The notes beneath the pieces were generated by a model. It did not search any database. It was not told the origin of the DNA and was given only the letters and a program-made list of their open reading frames with translations. 64,000 bases of DNA, from NCBI GenBank assembly GCA_964629735.1, contig CAZVQX010000003.1, positions 6,387-70,386 on the forward strand. The letters are read 5' to 3'. Below, piece after piece: positions 11,124 through 54,691 of the stretch (the first letter of the stretch is position 1; every line of letters begins with the position of its first letter). Both the position numbers and the translations under genes were made by a program. Origin of the DNA: an uncultured Muribaculaceae bacterium. Its GTDB lineage: Bacteria; Bacillota_I; Bacilli_A; RF39; UBA660.

Positions 11124-12635
11124 ATGAAGAGAAGTCACGCTTTATTTATTTTATTTGTATTTCAAATTTTATTAATCTATAATTTCCATTATTATATTTC
11201 TAATAATTATAAAGTGTTAGCCATCATTATTTCTAATTTAATATCATTAATTGTTTCTGTTACAATTTTATTAGGTAATAAAAAAATGGAATCTAAGATT
11301 GCATGGACAATTTTTGTTTTGTTTGTACCAATTGTTGGCTTTTTATTTTATATGATATTAGGTGTTGAATATAGTCGTTTTAGCAAATTTGATGATAAAT
11401 TAGATATGGATAATAATATTGAAAGAATGACACTTTCAGAACGTGAAGATATAAATAAAATTATAGCGAAACTAGGTGACCGTAAAGATATTGTTAAATT
11501 ATTACATAATATTAACGATGCGCCTGTCTCCATTAATAATAAAGTTCAAATCATGACCAACGGTGATATGAAATATAAACATTTATTAGAAGAATTAAAA
11601 AAATCTAAAGTCTTTATTAATTTCGAGTATTTTATAATAAAAGAAAGTGAAATTTTTGATGAAATAAAAAAGATATTAATTGAAAAATCTAAGGCTGGGG
11701 TTGAGGTAAGATTTTTATATGATGATTTTGGTTGTATGGATTTGCCCAAATCTATTTTTAAAGAATTAAGTCAAAATGGTATAAAAATAGGATGTTTTAA
11801 TAAAATTGATTTTAAATTATTTCGACCTAGCATTAATTATCGCAATCATCGAAAAATTGTGGTGATTGATAATAAAGTAGGGTTTCTTGGTGGTATAAAT
11901 ATAGGTGATGAATATAATCATAAAGATCCATATTATGGGTTTTGGCGCGATACTCATTTACTTATTAGAGGGATGGCTGTAAAAGATCTTAATGCGGTTT
12001 TTATTAAAGATTGGTTTCACACAACAGATGAGTTATTATTAGATTCTAAATACACAAAAGGTTATAAGGAGAAAAATAATAAAAGTGCGGTTCAAATTGT
12101 TGCTGATGGTCCAGATAACAATTTAGGAGTTATTCGTAATACTTTTTTTAAACTTATTAATGATGCTAATAAACGCGTTTGGATTGTTACGCCATATTTA
12201 ATATTAGATAGTGAATTATTAGTTTCTTTAAGAATTGCAGCATTATCTGGTGTTGATGTTAGAATAATTGTTCCCGGACTTCATGATAAAGGTAAAAAAA
12301 TGGTTTATAAGGCAACTGAGGCGTATTTTAATGATTTATTAGAGGCTGGTGTTAGAATATATAAATATAATAATCACTTTATTCATTCGAAAGTAATGAT
12401 TATTGATGATGATATAGCTAGTGTTGGTACAGTTAATTTTGATTATCGAAGTTTTGATCTTCATTTTGAAGCAACTGCTATTCTATATTTTGATCCGGCA
12501 ATTAAACAATTGATAGAAGAATATAATAATGATTTATTAAAAAGTACAGAAGTATTATATGATGATTGGAAACATAGGAGTTTTTATCAACGGATGATTG
12601 AATCCCTAGTAAAAATATTCTCGCCATTATTATAA
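11124..12635 (+). CDS. cls: Cardiolipin synthase
   Basis: Two N-terminal TMs and two HKD motifs (HRKIVVIDNKVGFLGGINIGD and HSKVMIIDDDIASVGTVNFD). Start at ATG 11124 after RBS AGGTGG. Confidence 0.93.
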   Translation: MKRSHALFILFVFQILLIYNFHYYISNNYKVLAIIISNLISLIVSVTILLGNKKMESKIAWTIFVLFVPIVGFLFYMILGVEYSRFSKFDDKLDMDNNIERMTLSEREDINKIIAKLGDRKDIVKLLHNINDAPVSINNKVQIMTNGDMKYKHLLEELKKSKVFINFEYFIIKESEIFDEIKKILIEKSKAGVEVRFLYDDFGCMDLPKSIFKELSQNGIKIGCFNKIDFKLFRPSINYRNHRKIVVIDNKVGFLGGINIGDEYNHKDPYYGFWRDTHLLIRGMAVKDLNAVFIKDWFHTTDELLLDSKYTKGYKEKNNKSAVQIVADGPDNNLGVIRNTFFKLINDANKRVWIVTPYLILDSELLVSLRIAALSGVDVRIIVPGLHDKGKKMVYKATEAYFNDLLEAGVRIYKYNNHFIHSKVMIIDDDIASVGTVNFDYRSFDLHFEATAILYFDPAIKQLIEEYNNDLLKSTEVLYDDWKHRSFYQRMIESLVKIFSPLL

Positions 12636-12639
12636 ATAA

Positions 12640-12672
12640 AAAAACATGATGTTTACGCATCATGTTTTTGTT
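12640..12672. terminator. Bidirectional terminator
   Basis: AAACATGATG..CATCATGTTT hairpin. Confidence 0.75.
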
Positions 12673-13159
12673 TAGTTAATTTTTTAATATCATTGCAAAT
12701 TATTTTATTATAGTCTCCCATTATAAAATCTTTATTTAATTCACGAGCAATATTTAATTCGTCACGAATTTCTTTTTTGGTTATTTCATTAATCTCACTA
12801 TGTGAAATAATTAAACAAGCATCACATTTGATAATTTCTTTACGGCTGTATTGTAATTTTTGTTTTAACCAATCTTTATAAGCTCTTCTTTTTGATTCAA
12901 TAATTCTTAAACTTTGTATTTGTTCTTTATCAAGTGTGTGATAATTTTTAATATTTCTAATATATTCATCACTTTCAATTAAAAAGTTTTGGGAATTATT
13001 ATCAATCATCATATTTAAATAGTTATACTTACTAAAATCATAAGGCATTACTAAATTTACACCATTTAATTTATATAATTTAATAATTTTGTCCAAATTA
13101 TTACTAATAAATTCATATGATTCTTTCGGCGCAACTATAAAAACATTGTTATATATCAT
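12653..13159 (-). CDS. Hypothetical protein
   Basis: Start taken at the internal Met (MIYNNVFIV) preceded by RBS GAGGGGG. No recognisable family. Confidence 0.5.
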   Translation of the reverse strand: MIYNNVFIVAPKESYEFISNNLDKIIKLYKLNGVNLVMPYDFSKYNYLNMMIDNNSQNFLIESDEYIRNIKNYHTLDKEQIQSLRIIESKRRAYKDWLKQKLQYSRKEIIKCDACLIISHSEINEITKKEIRDELNIARELNKDFIMGDYNKIICNDIKKLTKQKHDA

Positions 13160-13222
13160 ATATAATCCCCCTCTCTTATAAGATGTTTTATATATTAGCA
13201 CTCAATTATAATTTTGTCAAGA

Positions 13223-14353
13223 TTAATTTGTATATCTAAAACCTTCATTAGAAATATTAAATATAATCCCAGCCATTATCATATAACTTAATAAACTTGA
13301 ACCACCATAACTAATAAAGGGTAAAGTAATACCGGTAATTGGCAATAGGCCAAAAGTCATACCAATATTTTGGACCTGTTGATAAATAAGCATACCAACA
13401 ATTCCTGAAATAATATATTTGTTTATATTTTTATTAGTATTAATGGCTGCTAATATAAGGACGATATTAAACATTAAAATTAATCCTAGTAAGAATAACG
13501 AACCAATAAAACCAAAATTATTTGCATAAACTGCGAAAATAAAATCAGTTTGGGCTTCTGGAAAATAAACAGGAGTATTTCTAAAACCACTACCAAATAA
13601 TCCACCGGTTCCGATTGCACTTAAACCATTTTCTAATTGATATCCTGATTTACTTGACCAATCAAGTAAACGATCAATTCTTAAGAAAAAATTTGTTCCA
13701 AAGTATTTTATTAATAAATCTGTATTAATGAAGTAAAGTCCTAAAAGAATTATAACGATGATTGATATAATTCCAAATAATAACACAAACCAACGATATC
13801 TTATACCAGCCACAAAAAGCATTACAGTAGTAATTAATAAATATATTAAAACGACACCGGTATCTGGTTGTAAAAATGTCAGAAAACTAGGAATAAAAAC
13901 AACGATACCAACTTTCAATAGAAAATAAAATTCTTCTTTTACAGTAGGACTTGGATAATTTTCATTAAATTCATCAATTAATTTAGCGATAGTAATAATA
14001 AGTATAATTTTCATAAATTCACTAGGCTGTACGGTACCAATTTTTGGTATTTGATACCAGCATCTAGCATCATTAATTGGTGTAGCAAACAATAATAAAC
14101 CAAGTAATGATATTAAACCAATTATATAAAATAACCAAATATTCCGATATATATATTCGTTTCCAATAAACATTATAAAGTAGGCAATTATAAATCCAAT
14201 TATGTACCAAAGAATTTGTTTAATATATAAATTATTTAAATAACTTGGTAATAAACTTTGGGCACTATAAATAGTAATAATACTAATAATTGCAAATATA
14301 ATAATAGGGATTAAAATAAAATTATCTACTTTATATTTAGAAACATTTTTCAT
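13223..14353 (-). CDS. FtsW/RodA/SpoVE-family peptidoglycan glycosyltransferase
   Basis: Ten-TM SEDS protein with the conserved C-terminal motifs LPxTGxxLPFxSYGGSS. Confidence 0.9.
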   Translation of the reverse strand: MKNVSKYKVDNFILIPIIIFAIISIITIYSAQSLLPSYLNNLYIKQILWYIIGFIIAYFIMFIGNEYIYRNIWLFYIIGLISLLGLLLFATPINDARCWYQIPKIGTVQPSEFMKIILIITIAKLIDEFNENYPSPTVKEEFYFLLKVGIVVFIPSFLTFLQPDTGVVLIYLLITTVMLFVAGIRYRWFVLLFGIISIIVIILLGLYFINTDLLIKYFGTNFFLRIDRLLDWSSKSGYQLENGLSAIGTGGLFGSGFRNTPVYFPEAQTDFIFAVYANNFGFIGSLFLLGLILMFNIVLILAAINTNKNINKYIISGIVGMLIYQQVQNIGMTFGLLPITGITLPFISYGGSSLLSYMIMAGIIFNISNEGFRYTN

Positions 14354-14444
14354 AATACCACCTTGTTAATATATTACACTAAAAAAAATAATTATTCAAA
14401 TAAGTTTTGTAAAAATAAAAATATATAGTATAATGGAGGTGGTG

Positions 14445-14765
14445 ATGAAAATGGAATTTTTACAATATGTAATTATAACGATTATACTTATTATAATTGC
14501 AATTGCAATTGCCAATGCAAAAAAGAAAGATTTTAAAATAAAAACAAATAAATTAGTTGAGTATCTTGGTGGAAAAGATAATATAATTAATTATGAATTT
14601 ACCAAATCCAGATTTGTAGTTAATTTAAATGATGTTAATTTAGCTAATAAAGAAGCAATTCAAAAAATGGGTGCTAGTGGTATTGTTGAAATAGATAATC
14701 AACTTAAGATTGTTTTTAAAAATGATGCTAAGCAATTAAAAAAGAATATTGATGACTTGAAGTGA
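14445..14765 (+). CDS. Membrane-anchored PTS EIIB(Glc)-like domain protein lacking the phospho-cysteine
   Basis: One TM followed by LGGKDNIINYEFTKSRFVVNLND...MGASGIVEI, which aligns to EIIB(Glc) GGKENI..DACITRLR..LGAAGVV with Cys replaced by Thr. Confidence 0.6.
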   Translation: MKMEFLQYVIITIILIIIAIAIANAKKKDFKIKTNKLVEYLGGKDNIINYEFTKSRFVVNLNDVNLANKEAIQKMGASGIVEIDNQLKIVFKNDAKQLKKNIDDLK

Positions 14766-14841
14766 TAATAAATGTCACTTTTTTTCATTATTCGACAAAA
14801 CCAGACAATAGATTGTTATATAATGTTTTTGGGGTGAGAAA

Positions 14842-16077
14842 ATGAATATTTTTGATAGTATGGTTTTAAATATGATATTACTTATTTTTCCAACATTACT
14901 TTGGCTAATTTATTTGATTCATAATAAAAATGTTGGTGTTCAAGAAAGTGATTTGTTATTTAATTTTAGCAATGTAACAACAATTTATTTATTATCTAAA
15001 TTTGGAGTACCACTAATTGGTGATAAATTTTTACTTTTAATTAATATTCCATTAATTGTAGCTTATTTTAAAAAGAAAAAAGCAAGTATTATCATGTTAT
15101 CTATTATTATTGTTATATATTATTATCAAAATTTTAATTGCTTACTATTTTTTCTGATTTTCGAATATCTAATATATTATCTAATATATTATGTTACTAA
15201 AAATAATTCTACTAAAACAATAATTATAATAACATTATTAAAAGTTTTTGCTTTTACTATTTGTTATATTGATTTAGGGAATTTTAGTATAAATAACCAA
15301 CAAAAAGTAATTGATTTATTATTAATAAATGCTAACTTTATTTTTTTGCTCACTTTAATTATTTTTATTTATATTAAATTTGAAGATATAATAAAGTATC
15401 ATATGTCATTAAAAGAACTTGAACAAGAAAAACAATATAGAGCAAGCTTATTTAGAATAACACACGAAATTAAAAATCCAATTGCCGTTTGTAAGGGTTA
15501 TTTAGATATGTTTGATATTAATAATATTGAACATAGTAAAAGGTATATACCAATTTTAAAAAACGAAATAGAGCGAACGCTTATTTTACTGAAAGATTTT
15601 TTATATATGACAAAGATAAAGATTGATAAAGAAATAGTAGATGTTATTATGGTCTTAGAGGATGTTATTGATAACTTTGTCCCGATTTTAAAAGAAAATA
15701 ATATTGAGTATGACTTTAAATTAATAGATGATAGTGTCTACATTTATGGTGATTATAATCGCTTGATGCAAGTTTTTATTAATTTAATAAAAAATAGTGT
15801 TGAGGCTGTTGATTATGATAAACAAAGCAAATTAAAAATAACAACAAAATTGATAGATAGTAGTATATATATATATATTTATGATAATGGAATTGGGATT
15901 GATGAAGAGACATTAAAAAAAATTATGGAACCCTTTTTTACAACTAAGCCAAACGGGACCGGTCTCGGTGTTTCTCTTACTAATGAAATTATTAAAGCAC
16001 ATGGTGGTGAAATAAAATATACATCTTTAGAAAAAGTCGAAACATTAGTGGAAATAATTTTACCCTTAATTAACTAG
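14842..16077 (+). CDS. Orphan sensor histidine kinase (multi-TM sensor, HisKA, HATPase)
   Basis: Five or six N-terminal TMs. H-box ITHEIKNPIA, N-box LIKNSVEA, G1 DNGIGI, G2 GTGLGV. No response regulator gene nearby. Confidence 0.85.
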   Translation: MNIFDSMVLNMILLIFPTLLWLIYLIHNKNVGVQESDLLFNFSNVTTIYLLSKFGVPLIGDKFLLLINIPLIVAYFKKKKASIIMLSIIIVIYYYQNFNCLLFFLIFEYLIYYLIYYVTKNNSTKTIIIITLLKVFAFTICYIDLGNFSINNQQKVIDLLLINANFIFLLTLIIFIYIKFEDIIKYHMSLKELEQEKQYRASLFRITHEIKNPIAVCKGYLDMFDINNIEHSKRYIPILKNEIERTLILLKDFLYMTKIKIDKEIVDVIMVLEDVIDNFVPILKENNIEYDFKLIDDSVYIYGDYNRLMQVFINLIKNSVEAVDYDKQSKLKITTKLIDSSIYIYIYDNGIGIDEETLKKIMEPFFTTKPNGTGLGVSLTNEIIKAHGGEIKYTSLEKVETLVEIILPLIN

Positions 16078-16113
16078 TAAAAAATTTGAATAATTAAATT
16101 TTAATAAGGTATA

Positions 16114-16151
16114 AAAAATGATAAACTAAATAACTATAGTTTATCATTTTA
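16114..16151. terminator. Bidirectional terminator
   Basis: Perfect 12-bp stem AAATGATAAACT..AGTTTATCATTT. Confidence 0.85.
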
Positions 16152-16162
16152 AATTTAAAAAA

Positions 16163-17089
16163 TTATTGAATCGCTTCTACGTATATATCTTTTGAAAAAT
16201 GATGATTATTATTAATTTTTTTTAATTGTTGTCCATCTATTAAAAAATAATCATGCAATAATAAGTCTTCATTATTGATGGTAACGGGGTCATCCCAAGT
16301 TAAATCAAGATGGTACCATTTATTATCTAATTTGACTAAATTCCAAATATGGGTTTCGTTTGATATTCTTAAGTTTGGAATATTCAACTTAAACAAAAAC
16401 AAAGACATGGCATCACTATAACCGCCACAGATACCTTTATTTTGAAGAAGTGGTCCAACGGCTTTATGCGATTGATATAACGGTACGTAGTTTGCGTCAT
16501 TATTTACGATAGCTGCTGCCCGTTCTTGATCATAAGTTGTTGTATTAATTATATAGTCGTGAATTTTTAGTATTTTATCTTTATCATTCATTTCTGTTGT
16601 TATCAATTTGTTATATATTTCATTAACATTTTTGTTTAAAGTGTTAATTTCGTTTTCTTGATATAATTTTTCAAATTGAACAGTTATTTTTCCTAATTGA
16701 TTATAATCAATATATATAACATTATATGTATTAAATGGGTGAACAAAGTTATTTAAGGTTGATAGTAATTCTGTATCAGTTGAAATATTACTAATATCTT
16801 TAATACAATCATTATATTTAATATCACAAAAAAATGTAAATTCATCATAACCGTTATTTAAAATAGTATATAAAACATTAAATAAATCTGCTTTATTTTT
16901 AGGAAAGAAATTTTCTGTTTCCTTTAAATAATGAAAATTATAATCTAATTTATATATATTAGGGGTTTGCTCAACGATATCCTTTTTATATATATAGTTA
17001 ACAGTAATATGATGAATAATTTCATTACGGTATATAATAGATACAATAAGAATAAAAACTAAAATAATTCCTTTAATAATTTTTTTCAT
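16163..17089 (-). CDS. Transglutaminase-like (papain-fold) domain protein, membrane anchored
   Basis: N-terminal TM. Cys/His/Asp core GICGGYSDAMS..THIWNLVKLDNKWYHLDLTWDDP. Confidence 0.7.
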   Translation of the reverse strand: MKKIIKGIILVFILIVSIIYRNEIIHHITVNYIYKKDIVEQTPNIYKLDYNFHYLKETENFFPKNKADLFNVLYTILNNGYDEFTFFCDIKYNDCIKDISNISTDTELLSTLNNFVHPFNTYNVIYIDYNQLGKITVQFEKLYQENEINTLNKNVNEIYNKLITTEMNDKDKILKIHDYIINTTTYDQERAAAIVNNDANYVPLYQSHKAVGPLLQNKGICGGYSDAMSLFLFKLNIPNLRISNETHIWNLVKLDNKWYHLDLTWDDPVTINNEDLLLHDYFLIDGQQLKKINNNHHFSKDIYVEAIQ

Positions 17090-17129
17090 ATTAAGCCCCT
17101 TTATTATTCTTATAAAAAAAGAAGTATAA

Positions 17130-17393
17130 TTACTCCATACTATTTACTTTTTTTGTTAATTTTGATTTATCACGAGCACCTTTATTAGGATGAATTACTC
17201 CTTTTTTAGTTGCTTTATCAATTTTCTTAATGGCTGTGTTTAGATTTTCGTGAGCAACTTCTTTATCGTTGTTTAAAATTGCTTTTTCAACTTTTTTAAC
17301 TGCTGTACGCATACTTGATTTATACTCGTTATTCATTGTTTTCTTTTTATTATCTAAATTTACTTTTTTAATAGCGTTCTTTAAATTTGGCAT
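17130..17393 (-). CDS. rpsT: 30S ribosomal protein S20
   Basis: 87 aa basic protein MPNLKNAIKKV..., S20 family. Confidence 0.92.
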   Translation of the reverse strand: MPNLKNAIKKVNLDNKKKTMNNEYKSSMRTAVKKVEKAILNNDKEVAHENLNTAIKKIDKATKKGVIHPNKGARDKSKLTKKVNSME

Positions 17394-17493
17394 AATTTCA
17401 CCTCCTAAGTTGTCAATATATTAATATTAACAAAAAAATGAATAAAAATCAATAAAAACTGGAATTTTTGCCAAAATAAGTATAGGTGATATA

Positions 17494-18528
17494 ATGAAGC
17501 ATGAAATCGATTTAGAAAAATATAGTATAAGAACAGATTTAGCGCTTGAAGCAATTGAGCCTTTTCAGTCAGAAAGCGGTATTGAAAGTTCGTTTGAAAA
17601 AAAAGAAGATGTTACAATTACAACTGTTACATTAGATAAATTAGGTGGTAAAAAAATTAATAAAAAAGAAGGAACATATATAACAATCGAGTTTGATGAT
17701 GTAACTGATTATAATAACCAACAAAAAGTAATGCGAATTTTTAGTAGTAAATTAAAAGAAATGTTAACAAAATTTAAACTAGAAAAGGATAGTTTAATAT
17801 TAGTAATAGGTTTAGGTAATGAAAAATCAACCCCTGATTCTTTAGGACCGTTAGTTGTCAATAAAGTTATTGTCACAAATCATCTTTATACTTTAGAGGG
17901 ATTAGAATCGGGTTTTAGTAGAGTATGTGCAATGAGTCCAGGAGTGATGGGGACAACAGGAATGGAGACTAGTGATTTAATAGCTAGTATTATAAAAACA
18001 TCTTCGGCGGATTTGGTTTTGGTAATTGATGCGCTGGCTAGTCAGTCAATCGAACGATTAAATAAAACAATACAAATGACAGATACTGGTATTCACCCAG
18101 GAAGTGGAATTGGTAATTATCGTAAAGAAATAAGTTTAGAGGTTATGGGGGTCCCAGTTATTGCCATAGGTGTACCGACAGTAGTAGATGCAGTTACAAT
18201 TGTTAGTGATACTTTTAATTATATGCACAAACATTTCTCATACTCAAAAAATAATATTAACAATCCAATTAACAAATTAATTCCAATTACCAAAATTAAT
18301 TATTTAGAAAAAAGTTATGATATACAAATGCAAGATAAGGAAAAATTGTTAGGAATGGTGGGGAGTTTGAATGAGAATGAGGTAAAACAATTAGTATTTG
18401 AAGTTTTGACGCCGATAGGATATAACTTGATAGTGACACCTAAAGAGGTTGACTTTGTAATGCTAAAATTAAGCGAAATAATTGCAACTGGAATTAATGG
18501 AGCACTTCATACAAATGTAAAAAATTAA
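17494..18528 (+). CDS. gpr: Germination protease (SASP-degrading)
   Basis: N-terminus KYSIRTDLALEAIE matches GPR. Synteny rpsT/gpr/spoIIP as in Bacillus. Confidence 0.88.
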   Translation: MKHEIDLEKYSIRTDLALEAIEPFQSESGIESSFEKKEDVTITTVTLDKLGGKKINKKEGTYITIEFDDVTDYNNQQKVMRIFSSKLKEMLTKFKLEKDSLILVIGLGNEKSTPDSLGPLVVNKVIVTNHLYTLEGLESGFSRVCAMSPGVMGTTGMETSDLIASIIKTSSADLVLVIDALASQSIERLNKTIQMTDTGIHPGSGIGNYRKEISLEVMGVPVIAIGVPTVVDAVTIVSDTFNYMHKHFSYSKNNINNPINKLIPITKINYLEKSYDIQMQDKEKLLGMVGSLNENEVKQLVFEVLTPIGYNLIVTPKEVDFVMLKLSEIIATGINGALHTNVKN

Positions 18529-31081: not shown

Positions 31082-32186
31082 TTGGAATTCCATGAACTAA
31101 GAAATATTTATCATAATTATTTAATAAGAATTCAAGAGTTATGGAGGGCTCTTTGACTTAGATAACAAGAATGTTGAGTTAAAACAATTAGAAGAAAAGA
31201 TTAATCAACCTGATTTCTGGTTAGATAAAAGTAAGAGTGAAAAAATAATAAATAAATTTAATAATCTAAAAAAAACAATTAACTTAGTTTCGTCTTTAAA
31301 AGAAATAATTAATAACAATTATGAATTGGTTGAGCTTTTAAAAAATGAATATGATAACGAAATAAAAATAATGCTTGAGAGTGATATATTAAAAATTAAT
31401 AATAATCTAATTGAGATAGAAAATCTTTTATTACTAGATGGTCCATATGATAAATATGGTGCAATTTTTGAAATCCATTCAGGAGCAGGTGGGACTGAGG
31501 CTAATGATTGGGTGGCGATGTTGTATCGTATGTATGTGCGATATTTTGAGTCTAAAGGCTATGAAATTGAAATTTTAAATGAACAAAAAGGTGATGAGGC
31601 TGGCTTTAAGAATATTTCATTATTAGTAAGTGGTGAAAATGTTTATGGTTTTTTAAAAAATGAAGTTGGTGTACACCGATTAATTCGTATTTCTCCTTTT
31701 GATTCTAGTAAAAGACGTCATACTTCTTTTGCGTCTGTTGAAGTTCTCCCTTATTTTAATGAAACGATTAACGTTGAAATTAAAGATAGTGATTTAGTAA
31801 TTGATGTTTTTAGAAGTAGCGGTGCCGGTGGGCAATCGGTTAACACAACAGACAGTGCCGTTAGAATTACTCATTTACCAACCAAAATTACAGTAACATG
31901 CCAAAATGAGAGAAGTCAAATTCAAAACAAAGAACGAGCATTAGAAGTTTTGAAAAATAAATTATATAGTTTAGAAAAAGAAAAACAACAAAAAGAGTTA
32001 GATAATATTAAAGGTGGTATTGTTGCTATAAATTTTGGTTCTCAAATAAGGAGTTATATATTACACCCATATCAAATGGTTAAAGATCACCGTACTAATA
32101 CAGAAGTTAGTAATGCGTCAAAGGTATTAGATGGGGATATTGAAGTATTTATTCACGATAACTTAAAGCAAAGGAGTGGTAATTAG
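31082..32186 (+). CDS. prfB: Peptide chain release factor 2, join(31082..31153,31155..32186) with programmed +1 frameshift
   Basis: Frame 0 reads TTG-EFHELRNIYHNYLIRIQELWRAL followed by TGA. The internal SD GGAGGG sits upstream of CTT TGA C. The +1 frame continues DLDNKNVELKQLEEKINQPDFW...GAGGTEA..SPFDSS..GGQSVN. Confidence 0.85.
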
Positions 32187-43593: not shown

Positions 43594-43635
43594 ATGTGTA
43601 AACATTGTATAATAATATTAGAATGGAGGGGCTTT

Positions 43636-44901
43636 ATGGCGAGAGGTTTAAAGATACCAAAGCGCAAAAAAGATTCAATTACAGAAAAAATCAAAAAATA
43701 TGATAAACCAAAATATGTTTATATTCCCCTTATTTGTCAAAATGATACGAATATAACAGTTTTAGTAAAACAAGGTGATTATGTTTGTAAAGGAGATGTT
43801 ATTGCTAGAAGAAGAGGACATTTTAAAGTTCCTATTCATGCCAGTGTTAGTGGTAAAGTAATATCATTTGAAGAAAAATTATATATAACTGGGCAAGAAG
43901 TAAAATGTGTTGTTATTGAGAATGATTTTAAAGAACTTGTATCAACCAATTTTGAAGTTCCTAAACAAATTAATCATTATACGAAAGAAGAGTTTATAAA
44001 TATAATTAAAGATTCTGGGATTGTTGGTTTGGGCGGTGGTGGATTTCCAACATATGCTAAATATGAAACTAATGACAAAATTAATACATTAATTATTAAT
44101 GCCCTTGAATGTGAACCATATATAACTGCTGATTATATGTTGATTAAAGAAAAGTGCGAAGAAATATTAGAGGCAATAGACGCTGTTTTGAATATTAATG
44201 ATATTCCTGAAGCTATTATTGCTGTTAATAAAAAAAACACAGAAGTTATTGAAATTTTTAATACTTTTATTGGTACTTATATTAAAATTAAATTAGTCCC
44301 TGTCCCTAATATTTATCCAATGGGGTGGGAGAGATCATTAATAAAACAGGTGAAAGGTGTAACTTATAATAAAATACCGATTGAAAAGGGAATTGTTGTT
44401 AATAATGTTTCGACAATGTATGCGATATATGAAGCACTAAAATATGGTAAACCAATGATTGAACGAATTATGACAATTACTGGCGATATGATCAAAGAAC
44501 CACAAAATATTTTAATAAAGGTTGGAACACCGGTTAAAGAAATAATTAATTCAATTGGTGGTTATCAAGAGGGTGACGTAATTAGTCTTATTGCTGGCGG
44601 CCCCATGATGGGGGTTGCAGTTCCTTCGGATGAATTAATTACAAGTTCAAATTTGTTAGGAATTGTATTAATGTCATATGTAAGCGATGAACCGCCGACA
44701 GAATGTTTACGATGTGGTAAATGTGTTGAAGTATGTCCGGCTAAACTTTCTCCAGTTTTAATAATGGACAATTTTCAAGATAGTGACAAATTAACTGATC
44801 TTCGGCCTAAAAATTGTGTTGAATGTGGTCTCTGTTCGTATATTTGCCCAGCCAAAATAAGAGTTAGAGAATTTGTTATTCGCGCTAAAGAAAAGGTGTA
44901 A
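43636..44901 (+). CDS. rnfC: Rnf complex subunit C
   Basis: Two 4Fe-4S motifs (CLRCGKCVEVCP and CVECGLCSYICP). Start at MARGLK after RBS GGAGGGG. Confidence 0.9.
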   Translation: MARGLKIPKRKKDSITEKIKKYDKPKYVYIPLICQNDTNITVLVKQGDYVCKGDVIARRRGHFKVPIHASVSGKVISFEEKLYITGQEVKCVVIENDFKELVSTNFEVPKQINHYTKEEFINIIKDSGIVGLGGGGFPTYAKYETNDKINTLIINALECEPYITADYMLIKEKCEEILEAIDAVLNINDIPEAIIAVNKKNTEVIEIFNTFIGTYIKIKLVPVPNIYPMGWERSLIKQVKGVTYNKIPIEKGIVVNNVSTMYAIYEALKYGKPMIERIMTITGDMIKEPQNILIKVGTPVKEIINSIGGYQEGDVISLIAGGPMMGVAVPSDELITSSNLLGIVLMSYVSDEPPTECLRCGKCVEVCPAKLSPVLIMDNFQDSDKLTDLRPKNCVECGLCSYICPAKIRVREFVIRAKEKV

Positions 44902-44912
44902 AAAGGAGGCAT

Positions 44913-46346
44913 ATGATGAAAATTATGAAAGTTGAAGTAGGTCCTTATATAAAAGATAAAAATAATACTAATAAAATAATGAAACATTTACTAATCTCAT
45001 TATTACCTATTATTGTATTTAGTTTTATAAAAAATGGTGTTATTCCTTATAATAAAGGTTATATCAGTTTTTTTGAAATGTTTTATCCATTAATTTTTAT
45101 TATTACTGGTACAATTTCTACATTCTTAATTGAACTGTTGTATGCAAGATTTATTCTTTCTAAACAAAAAGCTCAATTAAAAAAATATATGATGTCATCT
45201 CACTCTATTTTTCCCGGACTTTTTCTTTCTTTGATTTTACCAATAAATACACCAATATTAGTTTTAATAATGGGCTCATTTATTGCCATTGTAGTTGGTA
45301 AAATGTTGTTTGGCGGATTTGGTAATAATGTATTTAATCCGGCTTTAATTGGATGTTTGTTTATATTATTAATATATGGTCCAATGATTGCTGGTCATGG
45401 TGGCTATTTAAATAAAATGGAAATTTCAACAACTAGTGCAACACCACTATCTAATATTTCATCAGTTGAAGGAATTGGTAGTTATGATAGTTTAGTAAAA
45501 CCGTATGGTAGTTTGTTAAATTTTGGGGTTGGAACAATCCCAGGTGCAATTGGTGAAACTAGTGCAATATTATGCTTAATTAGTTTAATATATCTTTTAA
45601 TTTTTCAAGTTATAAAATGGCCTATTCCAATAATTTATATTGGTACCGTTTTTGGAATGACTTATATGATTGGTAGCTTAAATGGATTATCGATTTGGTA
45701 TCCACTTTTTCAAGTTATGAGTGGTGGTTTGATGTTTGGGGCGGTTTTTATGGCAACCGATCCGGTAACAAGTCCTACAACTCCAATTGGTCAAATATTA
45801 TATGGCTTATTTTTAGGAATATTAACGGTGACAATAAGATATTTGACTTCATATCCAGAAGGCGTTTTAACTAGTATCTTAACTTTGAATATGTTTGTTT
45901 TTATTTTTGATAAGATTGGTTCAAAAGCTAGATTTAATTTTAATAAAGCAGTATTGCATTTTATTGTAGCATGGGTTTTAATTTTAGGCCTTAGTATATA
46001 TATCGGTAATAGTTATAAGAAAAATAATAATCAAAATGATAATAACTTTAAACTTGTATCGGTTGATGAAATAAATAAACAAACAGTATATGTTGTGCAA
46101 CAAAAAGCTTTTAGTGGTAATATTGAGGCTAGAATAATTTTTGAAAATAATAATATTCAAAGTATTGATATTATAAATGTTAATGATGATTATTATCCCA
46201 AAATTGCAAAAGTTAATTTTATAGATATTTTACTTAATAATCAAAAAGAAATTGAAGACGTTGATACCGTTAGTGGTGCTACAATTACATCGTCAGCTAT
46301 TAAAAATATGATCATTAATACAATGAGAGAACACGGAGTGCGATAA
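44913..46346 (+). CDS. rnfD: RnfD fused to an RnfG-like FMN-binding domain
   Basis: RnfD core with FMATDPVTSP. An extra TM is followed by VDTVSGATITSSAI, the FMN_bind covalent-flavin motif of RnfG. 477 aa versus about 320 for RnfD alone. Confidence 0.85.
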   Translation: MMKIMKVEVGPYIKDKNNTNKIMKHLLISLLPIIVFSFIKNGVIPYNKGYISFFEMFYPLIFIITGTISTFLIELLYARFILSKQKAQLKKYMMSSHSIFPGLFLSLILPINTPILVLIMGSFIAIVVGKMLFGGFGNNVFNPALIGCLFILLIYGPMIAGHGGYLNKMEISTTSATPLSNISSVEGIGSYDSLVKPYGSLLNFGVGTIPGAIGETSAILCLISLIYLLIFQVIKWPIPIIYIGTVFGMTYMIGSLNGLSIWYPLFQVMSGGLMFGAVFMATDPVTSPTTPIGQILYGLFLGILTVTIRYLTSYPEGVLTSILTLNMFVFIFDKIGSKARFNFNKAVLHFIVAWVLILGLSIYIGNSYKKNNNQNDNNFKLVSVDEINKQTVYVVQQKAFSGNIEARIIFENNNIQSIDIINVNDDYYPKIAKVNFIDILLNNQKEIEDVDTVSGATITSSAIKNMIINTMREHGVR

Positions 46347-46347
46347 T

Positions 46348-46440
46348 ATGAAAAGTAAAATAAAAAGTATCTTAGTGCTTACTTTAACAGCTTTAATATG
46401 TGCAATAATAATATATTATGTGTTTAAAATAATTAGTTAG
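46348..46440 (+). CDS. Unannotated 30-aa single-TM micro-ORF between rnfD/G and rnfE
   Basis: MKSKIKSILVLTLTALICAIIIYYVFKIIS. RBS GGAG 9 nt upstream. Could be a remnant of the rnfG N-terminal anchor. Confidence 0.35.
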   Translation: MKSKIKSILVLTLTALICAIIIYYVFKIIS

Positions 46441-46452
46441 AGGGGAGTAAAA

Positions 46453-47088
46453 ATGAAGACAATAAAAAATGGAATAATAGATGAAAATCCAACCTTAGTT
46501 TTAATGTTAGGTTTATGTCCAACATTAGCGGTTACTAACAACTTTGAGAGTGCATATATTATGGGAATATGTGTTTTATTAGTTTTATTATTTTCTAACT
46601 TCACTGTTTCTATTATAAAAAAATTAATCCCAGAAAATGTTAGAATACCGGTTTACATAATAATAATTGCTACTTTTGTAACAAGTGTCGAAATGTTATT
46701 ACAAAAATATGCTCCACCAATTCATGAGATATTAGGTATATATTTACCACTCATTACTGTTAATTGTATTGTTTTGGGAAGAGCGATTGCTGTTGCATCA
46801 AAAGAAAAGATTGGAAAAAGTATATTAGATGCAATAGGTATTGGGTTAGGGTTTACCCTTTCATTATCAATGATTGGTTTAGTGCGAGAAGTCCTTGGTA
46901 ATAATACTATTACTTTAATGAATGGTATCAGCCCATTAACTGGATATAAGGCTGTTTATCAAATATTTCCTACTACTGATTATTTTCCAATTGATTTTTT
47001 TCTAAAACCAGCTGGTGCATTTTTAACCCTTGGTTTATTCCTAGCTTTATTTAATTTTATTAAAGAAAAAAGGGGTGAACGAAAATGA
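46453..47088 (+). CDS. rnfE: Rnf complex subunit E
   Basis: NPTLVLMLGLCPTLAVT N-terminus, six TMs. Confidence 0.9.
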   Translation: MKTIKNGIIDENPTLVLMLGLCPTLAVTNNFESAYIMGICVLLVLLFSNFTVSIIKKLIPENVRIPVYIIIIATFVTSVEMLLQKYAPPIHEILGIYLPLITVNCIVLGRAIAVASKEKIGKSILDAIGIGLGFTLSLSMIGLVREVLGNNTITLMNGISPLTGYKAVYQIFPTTDYFPIDFFLKPAGAFLTLGLFLALFNFIKEKRGERK

Positions 47089-47651
47089 ATTTATTTAATT
47101 TATTTATAACTAGTGTTTTAACTAATAATATTATTTTAACTAAATTTTTAGGTATTTGTCCTTTTATTGGCGTTTCTAAAAAAGAAGAAAGTGCGATTGG
47201 GATGGGGTTAGCAGTAACAACTGTTTTAGCTATATCAAGTATTATTAATTATTTAATTTATCATTATATTTTAGAACCAACGAATACGACCTATTTACGT
47301 ACCTTAATATTTATTTTAGTAATTGCCTCATTAACACAAATAATAGAAATAATTGTAAAAAGTAAATTTCCAAAAATTCATCAGGCCTTAGGTATATTTT
47401 TACCATTAATAGCTACTAATTGTGCTATTTTAGGAATTAATTTATTGAACATAAATAATAGTTATAACTTTTTAGAGATGATTACTTTTACATTAGGTAG
47501 TGGAATCGGCTTTGCGCTAGTAATCTATATATTTTCAACGATTCGTGAAAGATTGGAAAAAATAAATATTCCAAAATGTTTTAAAGGAACACCAATTGCA
47601 CTAATAACAGCCGCTATCATGGCGCTTGTATTTGGTAGGTATTTTGGCTAA
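47085..47651 (+). CDS. rnfA: Rnf complex subunit A
   Basis: GICPFIGVS motif, six TMs. Confidence 0.9.
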   Translation: MNLFNLFITSVLTNNIILTKFLGICPFIGVSKKEESAIGMGLAVTTVLAISSIINYLIYHYILEPTNTTYLRTLIFILVIASLTQIIEIIVKSKFPKIHQALGIFLPLIATNCAILGINLLNINNSYNFLEMITFTLGSGIGFALVIYIFSTIRERLEKINIPKCFKGTPIALITAAIMALVFGRYFG

Positions 47652-53233: not shown

Positions 53234-54550
53234 TTAAACACCCTCTATACTATTTTTAAAAATTTTTTCTAAATCAAAGTAAAAGACGCAATATACAAAT
53301 TCATTTCCGTGTTGTTTTATAGCATCTATAACAACGTTAGGATCGGTATATGTAATTATTTTTTCTTTGGGAATTTTACTGTTTTTTAATCGAACGGCAA
53401 TATCATATGCAAAATTACCAAGACATATAATATTTTCAACATTATCATCATTTAATAGTTCAAAATTAATATCCCATAACCACGATAAATCCTTTAAGTT
53501 GTAGCGACCACTTACATTTTTAAAGCCAATAACAACTGTTTTTTTATGATTTTGTTTACTTATGTATTCAAGTGATTGATTATATGATATTGGTGTTTCA
53601 TTTTTACTAAGGAGTAAAGTGCATTTTTTATCATCTATTATAAATGTGTCAAATCTTTTAATTTTTAATGATAAATTATTAATTGCTTTTCCGACTTTAT
53701 CTTTATCAACACCGTCGGTTATTGAAACCGCATAACTAGCACTTAAGTTATAAACATTATATAAGGCTGTGTTATTCATTTTAATAGTTATATCATCAAT
53801 TTTAAAATGATCGTTGTCAATCAATTCAGCTTCAAATTTAGTGATTGGTCTTTTAAAATCGCATTTAGAACATTTGTAATCTCCTAGATTACCGTAATGG
53901 AAATAATCAAATTTTAATTTATTATTACAAATTGGGCAGTAAGCCGTATCTAAATTAAAAATTTTGTTTTCTTTAATTGATAATGATGTTTCTTTTAAAC
54001 CATAATAGGTGACTAATCCCTTATGGTTTAAAGCAAATTTAACGACTGTTGGATCATCAGCATTTAAGATTAGATGAATATCATCAGTAATATATTCATT
54101 AATATCTTTCCAAACAATGTCAGGATGGCCATTCCTAGCTAGTTGATCACGTGATAAATTATTAATAATAAAGAAATTAGGCTTAATGTCTTGAATTGTT
54201 TTTTTTACATATCGCTCATCAACTTCTAAAACTAAAACATCACTTTTAATTTTTCCAAATATATTAGCATTATTTATTAAACAAGTTAATACACCAGTAT
54301 CTAAGTTTGAACCTTTATTATTAATTCCTACTTTATAACCTGACTGTTCATATATATTATTTAAAATACCGGCAATTGAAGTTTTACCAGTTGTTCCAGT
54401 AATAAAAATAGTTGTTTTAGGTAATTTAAAATGTTTAAAAATATTTTGATTTAATTTCAGCGCTATTTCGCCTGGAAAGGCAGAACCGCGACCCATTTTT
54501 TTTAATATAAAGCTAATTGTTTTAGCCACAATCATTGTTAAAATTTTCAT
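53234..54550 (-). CDS. murT: Lipid II isoglutaminyl synthase subunit MurT (Mur-ligase domain plus DUF1727)
   Basis: Mur ligase P-loop ITGTTGKTS and Cys4 ribbon CPICNN..CSKCDF. Confidence 0.85.
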   Translation of the reverse strand: MKILTMIVAKTISFILKKMGRGSAFPGEIALKLNQNIFKHFKLPKTTIFITGTTGKTSIAGILNNIYEQSGYKVGINNKGSNLDTGVLTCLINNANIFGKIKSDVLVLEVDERYVKKTIQDIKPNFFIINNLSRDQLARNGHPDIVWKDINEYITDDIHLILNADDPTVVKFALNHKGLVTYYGLKETSLSIKENKIFNLDTAYCPICNNKLKFDYFHYGNLGDYKCSKCDFKRPITKFEAELIDNDHFKIDDITIKMNNTALYNVYNLSASYAVSITDGVDKDKVGKAINNLSLKIKRFDTFIIDDKKCTLLLSKNETPISYNQSLEYISKQNHKKTVVIGFKNVSGRYNLKDLSWLWDINFELLNDDNVENIICLGNFAYDIAVRLKNSKIPKEKIITYTDPNVVIDAIKQHGNEFVYCVFYFDLEKIFKNSIEGV

Positions 54551-54691
54551 AAATAACCTCTTATCTAGTATTAAAAAATATTCTCTAACAATATATCTTA
54601 ACCATATAAATTATATCACAAATAAGCTGCAAAATAAATTAAGAAAAATAATTTTTTCTAGTTTTGTCGAAAATTAAAAAAACATTTATAA

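Follow-up and report, generated by a model that had tools for sequence, protein, structure and literature searches.

A conserved membrane-tethered, cysteine-less EIIB(Glc)-like protein and a neighbouring orphan kinase with a putative tandem Spo0A-box promoter in the uncultured order RF39

The subject of this analysis is a pair of neighbouring genes in a 64-kb window (64,000 nucleotides of contig CAZVQX010000003.1, about 26% G+C) from an uncultured bacterium of the order RF39. The first gene (14445-14765, forward strand) encodes a small membrane-tethered protein that, by homology, fold and family conservation, resembles the EIIB(Glc) domain of the phosphotransferase system (PTS) but lacks its phosphorylated cysteine; the second (14842-16077, forward strand) encodes an orphan histidine kinase of 411 amino acids with HisKA and HATPase_c domains. 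The EIIB-like gene is preceded by the -10 region TATAGTATAAT of its promoter (14424-14434, forward strand) and ends in a hairpin of the intrinsic-terminator type with a tail of seven T residues (14760-14785, forward strand), whose stem and loop, AAGTGA-loop-TCACTT, occupy 14760-14780 and overlap the stop codon. Behind it lies a tandem element that resembles a pair of Spo0A binding sites, or 0A boxes (14791-14807, forward strand), and consists of box 1 (TTCGACA, 14791-14797), the triplet AAA and box 2 (CCAGACA, 14801-14807). The -10 hexamer of the kinase promoter, TATAAT (14819-14824, forward strand), comes next, separated from box 2 by 11 nt and from box 1 by 21 nt. On the other side, a gene for a RodA-like SEDS peptidoglycan polymerase (13223-14353, reverse strand; Pfam FTSW_RODA_SPOVE, E = 1.8e-71) is transcribed divergently from the EIIB-like gene.

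The EIIB-like protein, 106 amino acids long as called, begins with one hydrophobic transmembrane (TM) helix (residues 5-23; nt 14457-14513). This helix is followed by the stretch KKKDFKIK, which by the positive-inside rule places the EIIB domain on the cytoplasmic side of the membrane. The EIIB fold spans residues 36-104 approximately (nt 14550-14756). A match to the Pfam profile PF00367, on which the original prediction had staked its homology claim, is real (20.5 bits, E = 3.3e-4) but stays under the gathering score of 27; many relatives carry a precomputed match to the same profile. The NCBIfam profile for PtsG-type IIBC proteins gives a local match at E = 3.3e-10 (residues 24-104 against PtsG 392-472), and when a profile built from 43 family sequences is run against the PDB, it matches the PtsG-IIB chains of E. 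coli (E = 4e-10; about 30% identity over some 70 residues, without gaps). An AlphaFold2 (AF2) model with a pLDDT confidence score of 87 consists of a long N-terminal helix and the four strands and three helices of IIB in the right order. The best Foldseek matches of this model are 3bp8_C (the Mlc/EIIB complex), 3bp3_A and 1o2f_B, with TM(target) scores of 0.69-0.75. The split alpha/beta sandwich of IIB(Glc) is thereby confirmed at the level of the predicted structure, and the architecture of one TM helix plus an EIIB(Glc) domain, as first proposed, is borne out by profile, model and structural matches.

The family to which the protein belongs is large. A word-indexed protein search returned 4276 clusters at E <= 1e-3, the protein of one family species was found in 2896 index blocks, and an exhaustive search of representatives gave only 421 clusters at 50% identity. 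The best 120 proteins of the word-indexed search are all 102-113 residues long (one has 139), share an identical architecture and come from metagenome-assembled genomes labelled 'Bacilli', 'Mollicutes' or 'Tenericutes'. A scan of species-representative genomes yielded 80 loci, among them those of Firmicutes bacterium CAG:822, Candidatus Coprosoma and closed genomes of 1.3-1.5 Mb; Candidatus Coprosoma equals the GTDB genus CAG-822 of the order RF39 (PMC8035907). The loci were sampled as windows of at most 12 kb around the gene, and the proteins of our window were placed on them by tblastn; 75 loci were evaluable for the kinase and 73 for the RodA-like SEDS gene. Judged by these sequences, this is a large family without a name of its own in RF39 and related uncultured Bacilli. 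Its members are publicly called 'hypothetical protein' or, in some cases, 'PTS transporter subunit EIIB' (annotation by PGAP), and literature searches returned zero descriptions of a membrane-tethered, cysteine-less EIIB(Glc) protein. Both kinds of annotation, hypothetical and PTS transporter subunit, are wrong.

The residue numbering of the window protein is offset by 368 from that of PtsG, so that Cys421, the phosphorylated residue, corresponds to Thr53, Thr423 to Ser55, Arg424 to Arg56, Arg426 to Val58, Val450 to Glu82 and Gln456 to Lys88. The cysteine is missing at this position throughout. Among the 80 loci it occurs in none: the position is Asn in 76, Gln in two and Leu in one, and L080 gave no reading, as the scan matched the TM segment there. 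It is likewise absent from all 120 closest proteins, one of which (P0010) has a Cys one residue upstream and Asn at the position itself, and from about 20 distant TM-plus-EIIB proteins at 29-45% identity, which carry N, T, S, K, D, A or H. The replacement of the phosphorylatable cysteine by threonine, read earlier from the single sequence, thus extends to a loss in every family sequence inspected, and a catalytic EIIB is effectively refuted. The equivalent of Arg424 (Arg56) is invariant in the family, and that of Arg426 is Val or Ile. Separately, the representative search also retrieved soluble proteins made of three to five tandem EIIB(Glc) repeats (P0312, P0329, P0367 and P0373), in which most repeats have the Cys and several are degenerate (e.g., WCSTR, SRYTTR).

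Conservation within the family is concentrated on two surfaces. An alignment of 119 close members holds 28 columns of zero entropy, and the 43-sequence alignment (A1) holds 27. In the 119-member alignment E82, K88, R56 and S55 are invariant and N53 is near-invariant; together with E51 and Q86 they make up a strand face, predicted to be exposed, that is invariant or nearly so and coincides with the active-site face in PtsG. In the TM helix, positions 8, 11, 15, 18/19 and 21/22 (Y8, I11, L15, I18/A19, A21/I22) have an entropy below 0.6, while positions 9, 12-14, 16, 17, 20 and 23 vary freely; a stripe of this kind would be expected for specific helix-helix packing. Because both a sheet face and a helix stripe are conserved, we read the protein as a probable binding module, neither relic nor enzyme, and refer to it as the pseudo-EIIB.

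Like the IIB(Glc) domain of E. coli PtsG, the pseudo-EIIB stands C-terminal to a TM helix and a linker, and it retains the Arg424 equivalent. PtsG, however, comprises a IIC domain, of which the pseudo-EIIB has a single TM helix in place, and it operates a phospho-switch through Cys421, whereas the pseudo-EIIB has Asn or Thr at this position, no phospho-switch, and has also lost Arg426. To our knowledge, IIB(Glc) has a single known function besides catalysis, the capture of Mlc, which depends on membrane tethering. Tethering to the membrane is what inactivates Mlc (Tanaka 2004, as cited in PMC13482132), and in a 2026 structure of the Mlc:IICB complex Mlc is contacted through R424, V450 and Q456 (PMC13482132). 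The pseudo-EIIB shares with this system the tethering and the conserved contact face on strands beta2-beta4. The suggestion that it offers an Mlc-type docking surface therefore stands as the best functional analogy, with the same face conserved and R424 kept, but not in its contacts: V450 has become E82 and Q456 has become K88, so the partner must differ from Mlc. Moreover, the host lineage reportedly lacks a PTS for the most part, and no Mlc or other ROK gene was seen in the annotated loci. EIIB-type domains that serve in protein-protein contacts and have no phosphorylation role are also known from the PRD virulence regulators AtxA, Mga and MafR. Those are of the EIIB(Gat/Lac) type and sit at the C-terminus of soluble transcription factors, whereas the pseudo-EIIB is of the EIIB(Glc) type, stand-alone and membrane-anchored.

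The pseudo-EIIB gene forms a transcription unit of its own. TATAGTATAAT is nearly invariant in about 50 orthologous RodA-EIIB spacers and lies 8-12 nt before the ribosome-binding site (GGAGGTG/GGTGAT in the window); a consensus promoter scan places TTGTAA-16-TATAAT at 14407-14434. As the conserved TATAGTATAAT abuts the GGAGG of the gene, the transcript probably starts near 14441. Translation would therefore proceed from ATG 14451 with GGTGA as ribosome-binding site, so the public call of 106 amino acids is perhaps two codons too long; the true protein may have 104 residues, which is the modal length in the family alignments. At the other end of the gene, a hairpin with a stem of 6 bp or more and a tail rich in T is present in 37 of 38 kinase-positive and 25 of 38 kinase-negative loci, compared to 18% of shuffles, and since 61 different hairpin sequences occur, the stems must be held by compensatory change. 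What had been described as a weak hairpin followed by a separate -10 for the kinase is thus a real terminator, conserved in relatives, with TATAAT behind it. A generic promoter and terminator scan was uninformative in such AT-rich DNA (27 sites against 32.5 expected) and missed the AT-rich terminator. With its own promoter and a conserved terminator, the pseudo-EIIB gene is monocistronic; an operon coupling it to the kinase was rejected in view of the terminator and the separate promoters.

The RodA-like SEDS gene is the most constant neighbour of the pseudo-EIIB gene: of 73 loci, 50 have it divergent and less than 300 bp away, and 65 have it within 4 kb. It scores 264 bits against the NCBIfam model for RodA, 223 for FtsW and 170 for SpoVE, all under the equivalog cut-offs; its identification as SpoVE was rejected on the order of these scores. 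A kinase orthologue is found 69-140 nt downstream of the pseudo-EIIB gene in 37 of the 75 evaluable species-level genomes, so the two genes do recur together outside the window, and two look-ups, starting from a kinase homologue and from another family member, again recovered the order RodA, EIIB, kinase. On a RodA tree the kinase is ancestral. One loss falls in a derived clade, the CAG-822/Coprosoma group with about 27 species, and there were at least three further independent losses, while the pseudo-EIIB gene was retained. A recent loss is preserved in L012 (3796-4327), where the terminator and the 0A-box pair are intact and an 84-aa fragment of the kinase is left. Kinase-less loci have unrelated genes downstream; in L016, for example, both outer flanks are rearranged and a pyruvate kinase and a GH31 enzyme lie downstream, yet the RodA-EIIB pair persists. 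Within the same bin of RodA identity, EIIB and RodA identities are 0.81 and 0.73 without the kinase, and 0.71 and 0.66 with it. By this comparison the constraint on the pseudo-EIIB is not relaxed after kinase loss.

Farther out in the family, the neighbourhood changes. Five distant members with readable neighbourhoods lie in a housekeeping block (spx, CYTH, ppnK, rluD, GNAT, EIIB gene, maf, rnj), and none of the five has a SEDS or kinase gene nearby. In one distant member ptsH (HPr) follows directly, 69 nt downstream, and in one a vanY carboxypeptidase gene follows after 16 nt. Neither EIIC nor EIIA genes were present in the window or in any annotated locus examined.

In the kinase, His208 lies within an invariant THEIKNP H-box. 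The best local NCBIfam matches are AtoS, ZraS, WalK and KinD, all far under the cut-offs; a match to SpoIIE_N (E = 0.45) was dismissed as noise. The AF2 model (pLDDT 83) has helices at 2-27, 33-54, 66-76, 80-98, 102-118, 123-144 and 153-223. These form a membrane bundle of six to seven helices, the last of which is continuous with the DHp helix that carries His208, and the model contains neither a HAMP nor a PAS domain. Glu108-Tyr109, inside the membrane region, are invariant. Homologues of this kinase are confined to the RF39 lineage (43-69% identity), and its neighbours in every annotated locus are the pseudo-EIIB gene and a convergent transglutaminase-like gene. No response-regulator gene adjoins the kinase, nor was one seen among the translations of the 64-kb window that were read (open reading frames of ~100-140 residues or longer). 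The description as an orphan, multi-TM kinase consequently holds, with six to seven membrane helices in the model.

Beyond the kinase follow, in order, the transglutaminase-like gene (reverse strand), rpsT (reverse strand), gpr (forward strand), spoIIP (forward strand) and sspI (reverse strand), and further sporulation genes (yunB, yqfC/yqfD) occur elsewhere in the window. RF39 has been predicted to be spore-forming, with an unusual set of genes for it, and in Erysipelotrichales, a related order that served as reference, no sporulation sensor kinase of the Bacillus type was found (PMC10868615); the supplement of that study holds nothing on CAG-822, kinA or spo0A. The window kinase has the HisKA and HATPase_c domains and the HEIKNP H-box in common with the orphan sporulation kinases, i.e., KinA-E of B. 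subtilis, the clostridial kinases and PtpA-C of C. difficile (PMC11210211). It is membrane-bound, as are KinB, KinC and KinD, it stands among sporulation genes, and KinD belongs to its best NCBIfam matches. It differs from these kinases in having no PAS or Cache domain but a six-to-seven-helix sensor fused to DHp, in being lineage-specific, and in having a promoter with a tandem 0A site that fits the consensus; phosphotransfer to Spo0A is predicted.

This promoter element is present in all kinase promoters. Directly after the terminator, 37 of 37 (the window included) have TTCGACA-N3-nn(C/T)GACA, box 1 matching the core at seven of seven positions in each, and a TATAAT-like -10 at a fixed 11-12 nt past the element. 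The distance from box 1 to the -10 is 21-22 nt, which recalls the 22-bp spacer of the Spo0A-activated spoIIG promoter, and places box 1 at roughly -41 to -35 and box 2 at -31 to -25. TTCGACA is the reverse complement of the 0A-box core TGTCGAA (PMC3485338), and Spo0A~P dimers protect pairs of boxes that are 3 bp apart (PMC2731898). The tandem element thus reads as two Spo0A boxes forming a putative dimer site. As at the abrB, spoIIG and phage phi29/Nf A2c promoters, the TGTCGAA core occurs in boxes 3 bp apart over core promoter elements; unlike those, the putative site precedes a kinase gene in an uncultured order, and it could serve activation or repression.

The exact form TTCGACA-N6-GACA occurs once per kinase-positive locus and, apart from the remnant in L012, in none of the kinase-negative loci. 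In about 1 Mb of RF39 DNA, the only other places with a relaxed form are the region before the pseudo-EIIB gene, in L077 and in L079, and the one before murT in our window. Since the single TTCGACA is not enriched in the window (six occurrences against 4.3 expected), weight can be placed only on the orthologous conservation and the tandem form. Because an orphan kinase among sporulation genes has a putative Spo0A-dimer site in its promoter, it is a good candidate for the missing sporulation kinase. The earlier idea of a kinase feeding Spo0A hereby gains strong, if indirect, support from its promoters.

Two further occurrences of the element deserve mention. The one near murT, TTCGACAAAACTAGAAA (54655-54671, reverse strand), is identical at 15 of 17 positions to the element of the kinase promoter; it lies ~105 nt upstream of murT (53234-54550, reverse strand) and ~36 nt before the extended -10 TGATATAAT. 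In this murT-gatD operon for lipid II amidation it could be due to chance (0.44 expected at no more than one mismatch) or could link Spo0A to wall synthesis. In one subclade, TTCGACAAAATTAGAA(A/C) stands before the -10 of the pseudo-EIIB gene itself (L077, 5925-5941; L079, 5036-5052; and the RodA-EIIB spacer of L059), which hints that Spo0A may control the pseudo-EIIB (or RodA) there as well.

The remaining features of the window are set out briefly. The local gene order starts with a cardiolipin synthase gene (cls, forward strand) and continues with an open reading frame of 182 aa (12653-13201, reverse strand; 168 aa in the public gene call) before rodA. This reading frame has zero Pfam or NCBIfam matches and is conserved, at 37-54% identity, in the closest relatives only. 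An Rfam search of 12500-17600 found zero RNA families. By eye, a GpsB/DivIVA-like protein of 107 aa and a RodZ-like protein with a helix-turn-helix and a TM segment are encoded at 812-2000, upstream of pgsA, recA and rny; with rodA, murT/gatD and ftsEX also in the window, the organism clearly has a full cell-wall growth machinery. An Rnf-type ion-translocating cluster (RnfC, a fused RnfD/G, RnfE and RnfA) was recognised by eye from the translations at 43594-47651. At 31082-32186, prfB (release factor 2) contains a classic programmed +1 frameshift site: from the TTG start at 31082 there are 24 codons up to GGAGGGCT CTT TGA C at about 31143-31157, where the frame resumes in +1.

Taken together, these observations are best explained, in our view, by two independent units that are ancestral neighbours, a dead EIIB docking module and a Spo0A-linked kinase; we give this reading as a whole an even chance of being right. 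The pseudo-EIIB would most likely be what is left of an IICB protein of the PtsG/NagE type after the loss of IIC and the phospho-cysteine, namely its C-terminal part with the final TM helix, the linker and IIB. Held on the inner face of the membrane by its N-terminal helix and unable to carry phosphate, it may act as a constitutive membrane docking module that binds one or more partners through the former active-site face (E51, N/T53, S55, R56, E82, Q86, K88) and the TM stripe, after the model of PtsG-IIB and Mlc. By genomic context, the RodA-like SEDS polymerase would be the foremost candidate partner and the neighbouring kinase the next. The kinase, for its part, is predicted to sense within the membrane and to be the sporulation-initiation kinase of the lineage; it would phosphorylate Spo0A, or relay phosphate to it, under direct feedback by Spo0A~P. 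We infer the binding partners, the binding of Spo0A and the phosphotransfer. Several points weigh against this reading. No partner of the pseudo-EIIB is named by the data. In the distant members at 29-45% identity, conservation is limited to GG-x-x-N-I and S-R; the surface described above may therefore be specific to the clade, and the ptsH gene beside one of them may leave a residual link to the PTS. The 0A-box reading depends on identity to the consensus, and spo0A is absent from the 64-kb window. Finally, boxes that lie over the -35 and the spacer could mediate repression instead of activation; boxes over core promoter elements can indeed repress, as at phage A2c (PMC2731898).

The rival explanations differ in what they make of the neighbours. 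According to the original prediction, the pseudo-EIIB could serve the adjacent kinase as a modulating accessory subunit or as a decoy; lacking a sensor outside the membrane, the kinase would call for an input of this kind. In its model, the kinase has only a membrane bundle ahead of the DHp helix, the two being fused, the TM helix of the pseudo-EIIB has a conserved packing stripe, their adjacency is ancestral (a gap of 69-140 nt in 37 of 75 genomes across deep divergence, with the EIIB gene again immediately upstream in both look-ups), and in L059, L077 and L079 the 0A-like element also precedes the EIIB gene. The two genes are nevertheless separate units (a terminator in 37 of 38 kinase-positive loci), the pseudo-EIIB outlived at least four independent kinase losses and is at least as conserved after them, and five distant homologues have no kinase nearby; the proposal is weakened by this and we consider it unlikely. 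A role as cytoplasmic-face partner or regulator of the divergent RodA-like polymerase, a polytopic membrane protein against which the TM stripe could pack, is unlikely as well. The SEDS gene is close by in most loci, the pair survives the rearrangement of both flanks in L016, and the vanY gene 16 nt past one distant member also speaks for this role. On the other hand, none of the five readable distant members in the spx-CYTH-ppnK...maf-rnj block has a SEDS gene, a shared promoter spacer can by itself keep divergent pairs together, and we know of no precedent for an EIIB-like partner of a RodA-like SEDS protein. As neither link holds in distant relatives, we rank a general docking module above both models with a specific partner.

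Another explanation concerns the kinase promoter: the tandem repeat could be the site of a different response regulator, such as an OmpR-, WalR- or PhoP-type cognate of the kinase, and the kinase would then have nothing to do with sporulation. Tandem direct repeats with a periodicity of ~10-11 bp are typical of many response regulators, autoregulation of kinases is common, and the window does not contain spo0A. Still, WalR repeats (TGTWAH-N5) and PhoP repeats (TTAACA-N5), which have an 11-bp periodicity, differ from the element in core and periodicity; the 0A core is matched in full in all 37 promoters, the 3-bp spacing between the boxes is exactly that of footprinted Spo0A sites, and the kinase lies among sporulation genes. 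We regard this explanation as quite unlikely. It is extremely improbable, by comparison, that the small protein is a working PTS EIIB subunit, as its public annotation has it, or a decaying relic. For some members this is the PGAP annotation, and one distant member has ptsH beside it, but the phospho-cysteine is missing from every family sequence inspected, the Arg426 equivalent is lost, and no locus examined has an EIIC or EIIA gene. Most RF39/RFN20 genomes have been reported to be without a PTS (PMC7301438), which makes a role in phosphotransfer unlikely, and the chemistry of such a role is impossible in a protein that lacks the cysteine. Decay is excluded by the strong purifying selection seen in the invariant columns (27 over 43 sequences, 28 over 119 proteins).

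A docking module that is independent of the kinase, next to a kinase linked to Spo0A, thus remains our preferred reading. A bolder version of it, which we think distinctly doubtful, takes the pseudo-EIIB for a membrane adaptor that descends from the PTS, occurs in all of RF39 and is physically coupled to the RodA-type polymerase and, where present, to the Spo0A-linked kinase. If true, this adaptor would link the status of the envelope or of sugar precursors to growth and to the decision to sporulate, and it would constitute a new class of SEDS and kinase regulator made from a dead phosphocarrier domain. As an order of gut bacteria, RF39 is widespread and uncultured; its genomes are small and reportedly lack a PTS as well as recognisable Bacillus-type sporulation kinases. 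The dead, membrane-tethered EIIB(Glc) protein, strongly conserved across this order, shows clearly how a transport phosphocarrier can be put to new use as a module without enzymatic function, and the kinase with its paired 0A-box promoter is a concrete candidate for the sporulation trigger and its feedback.

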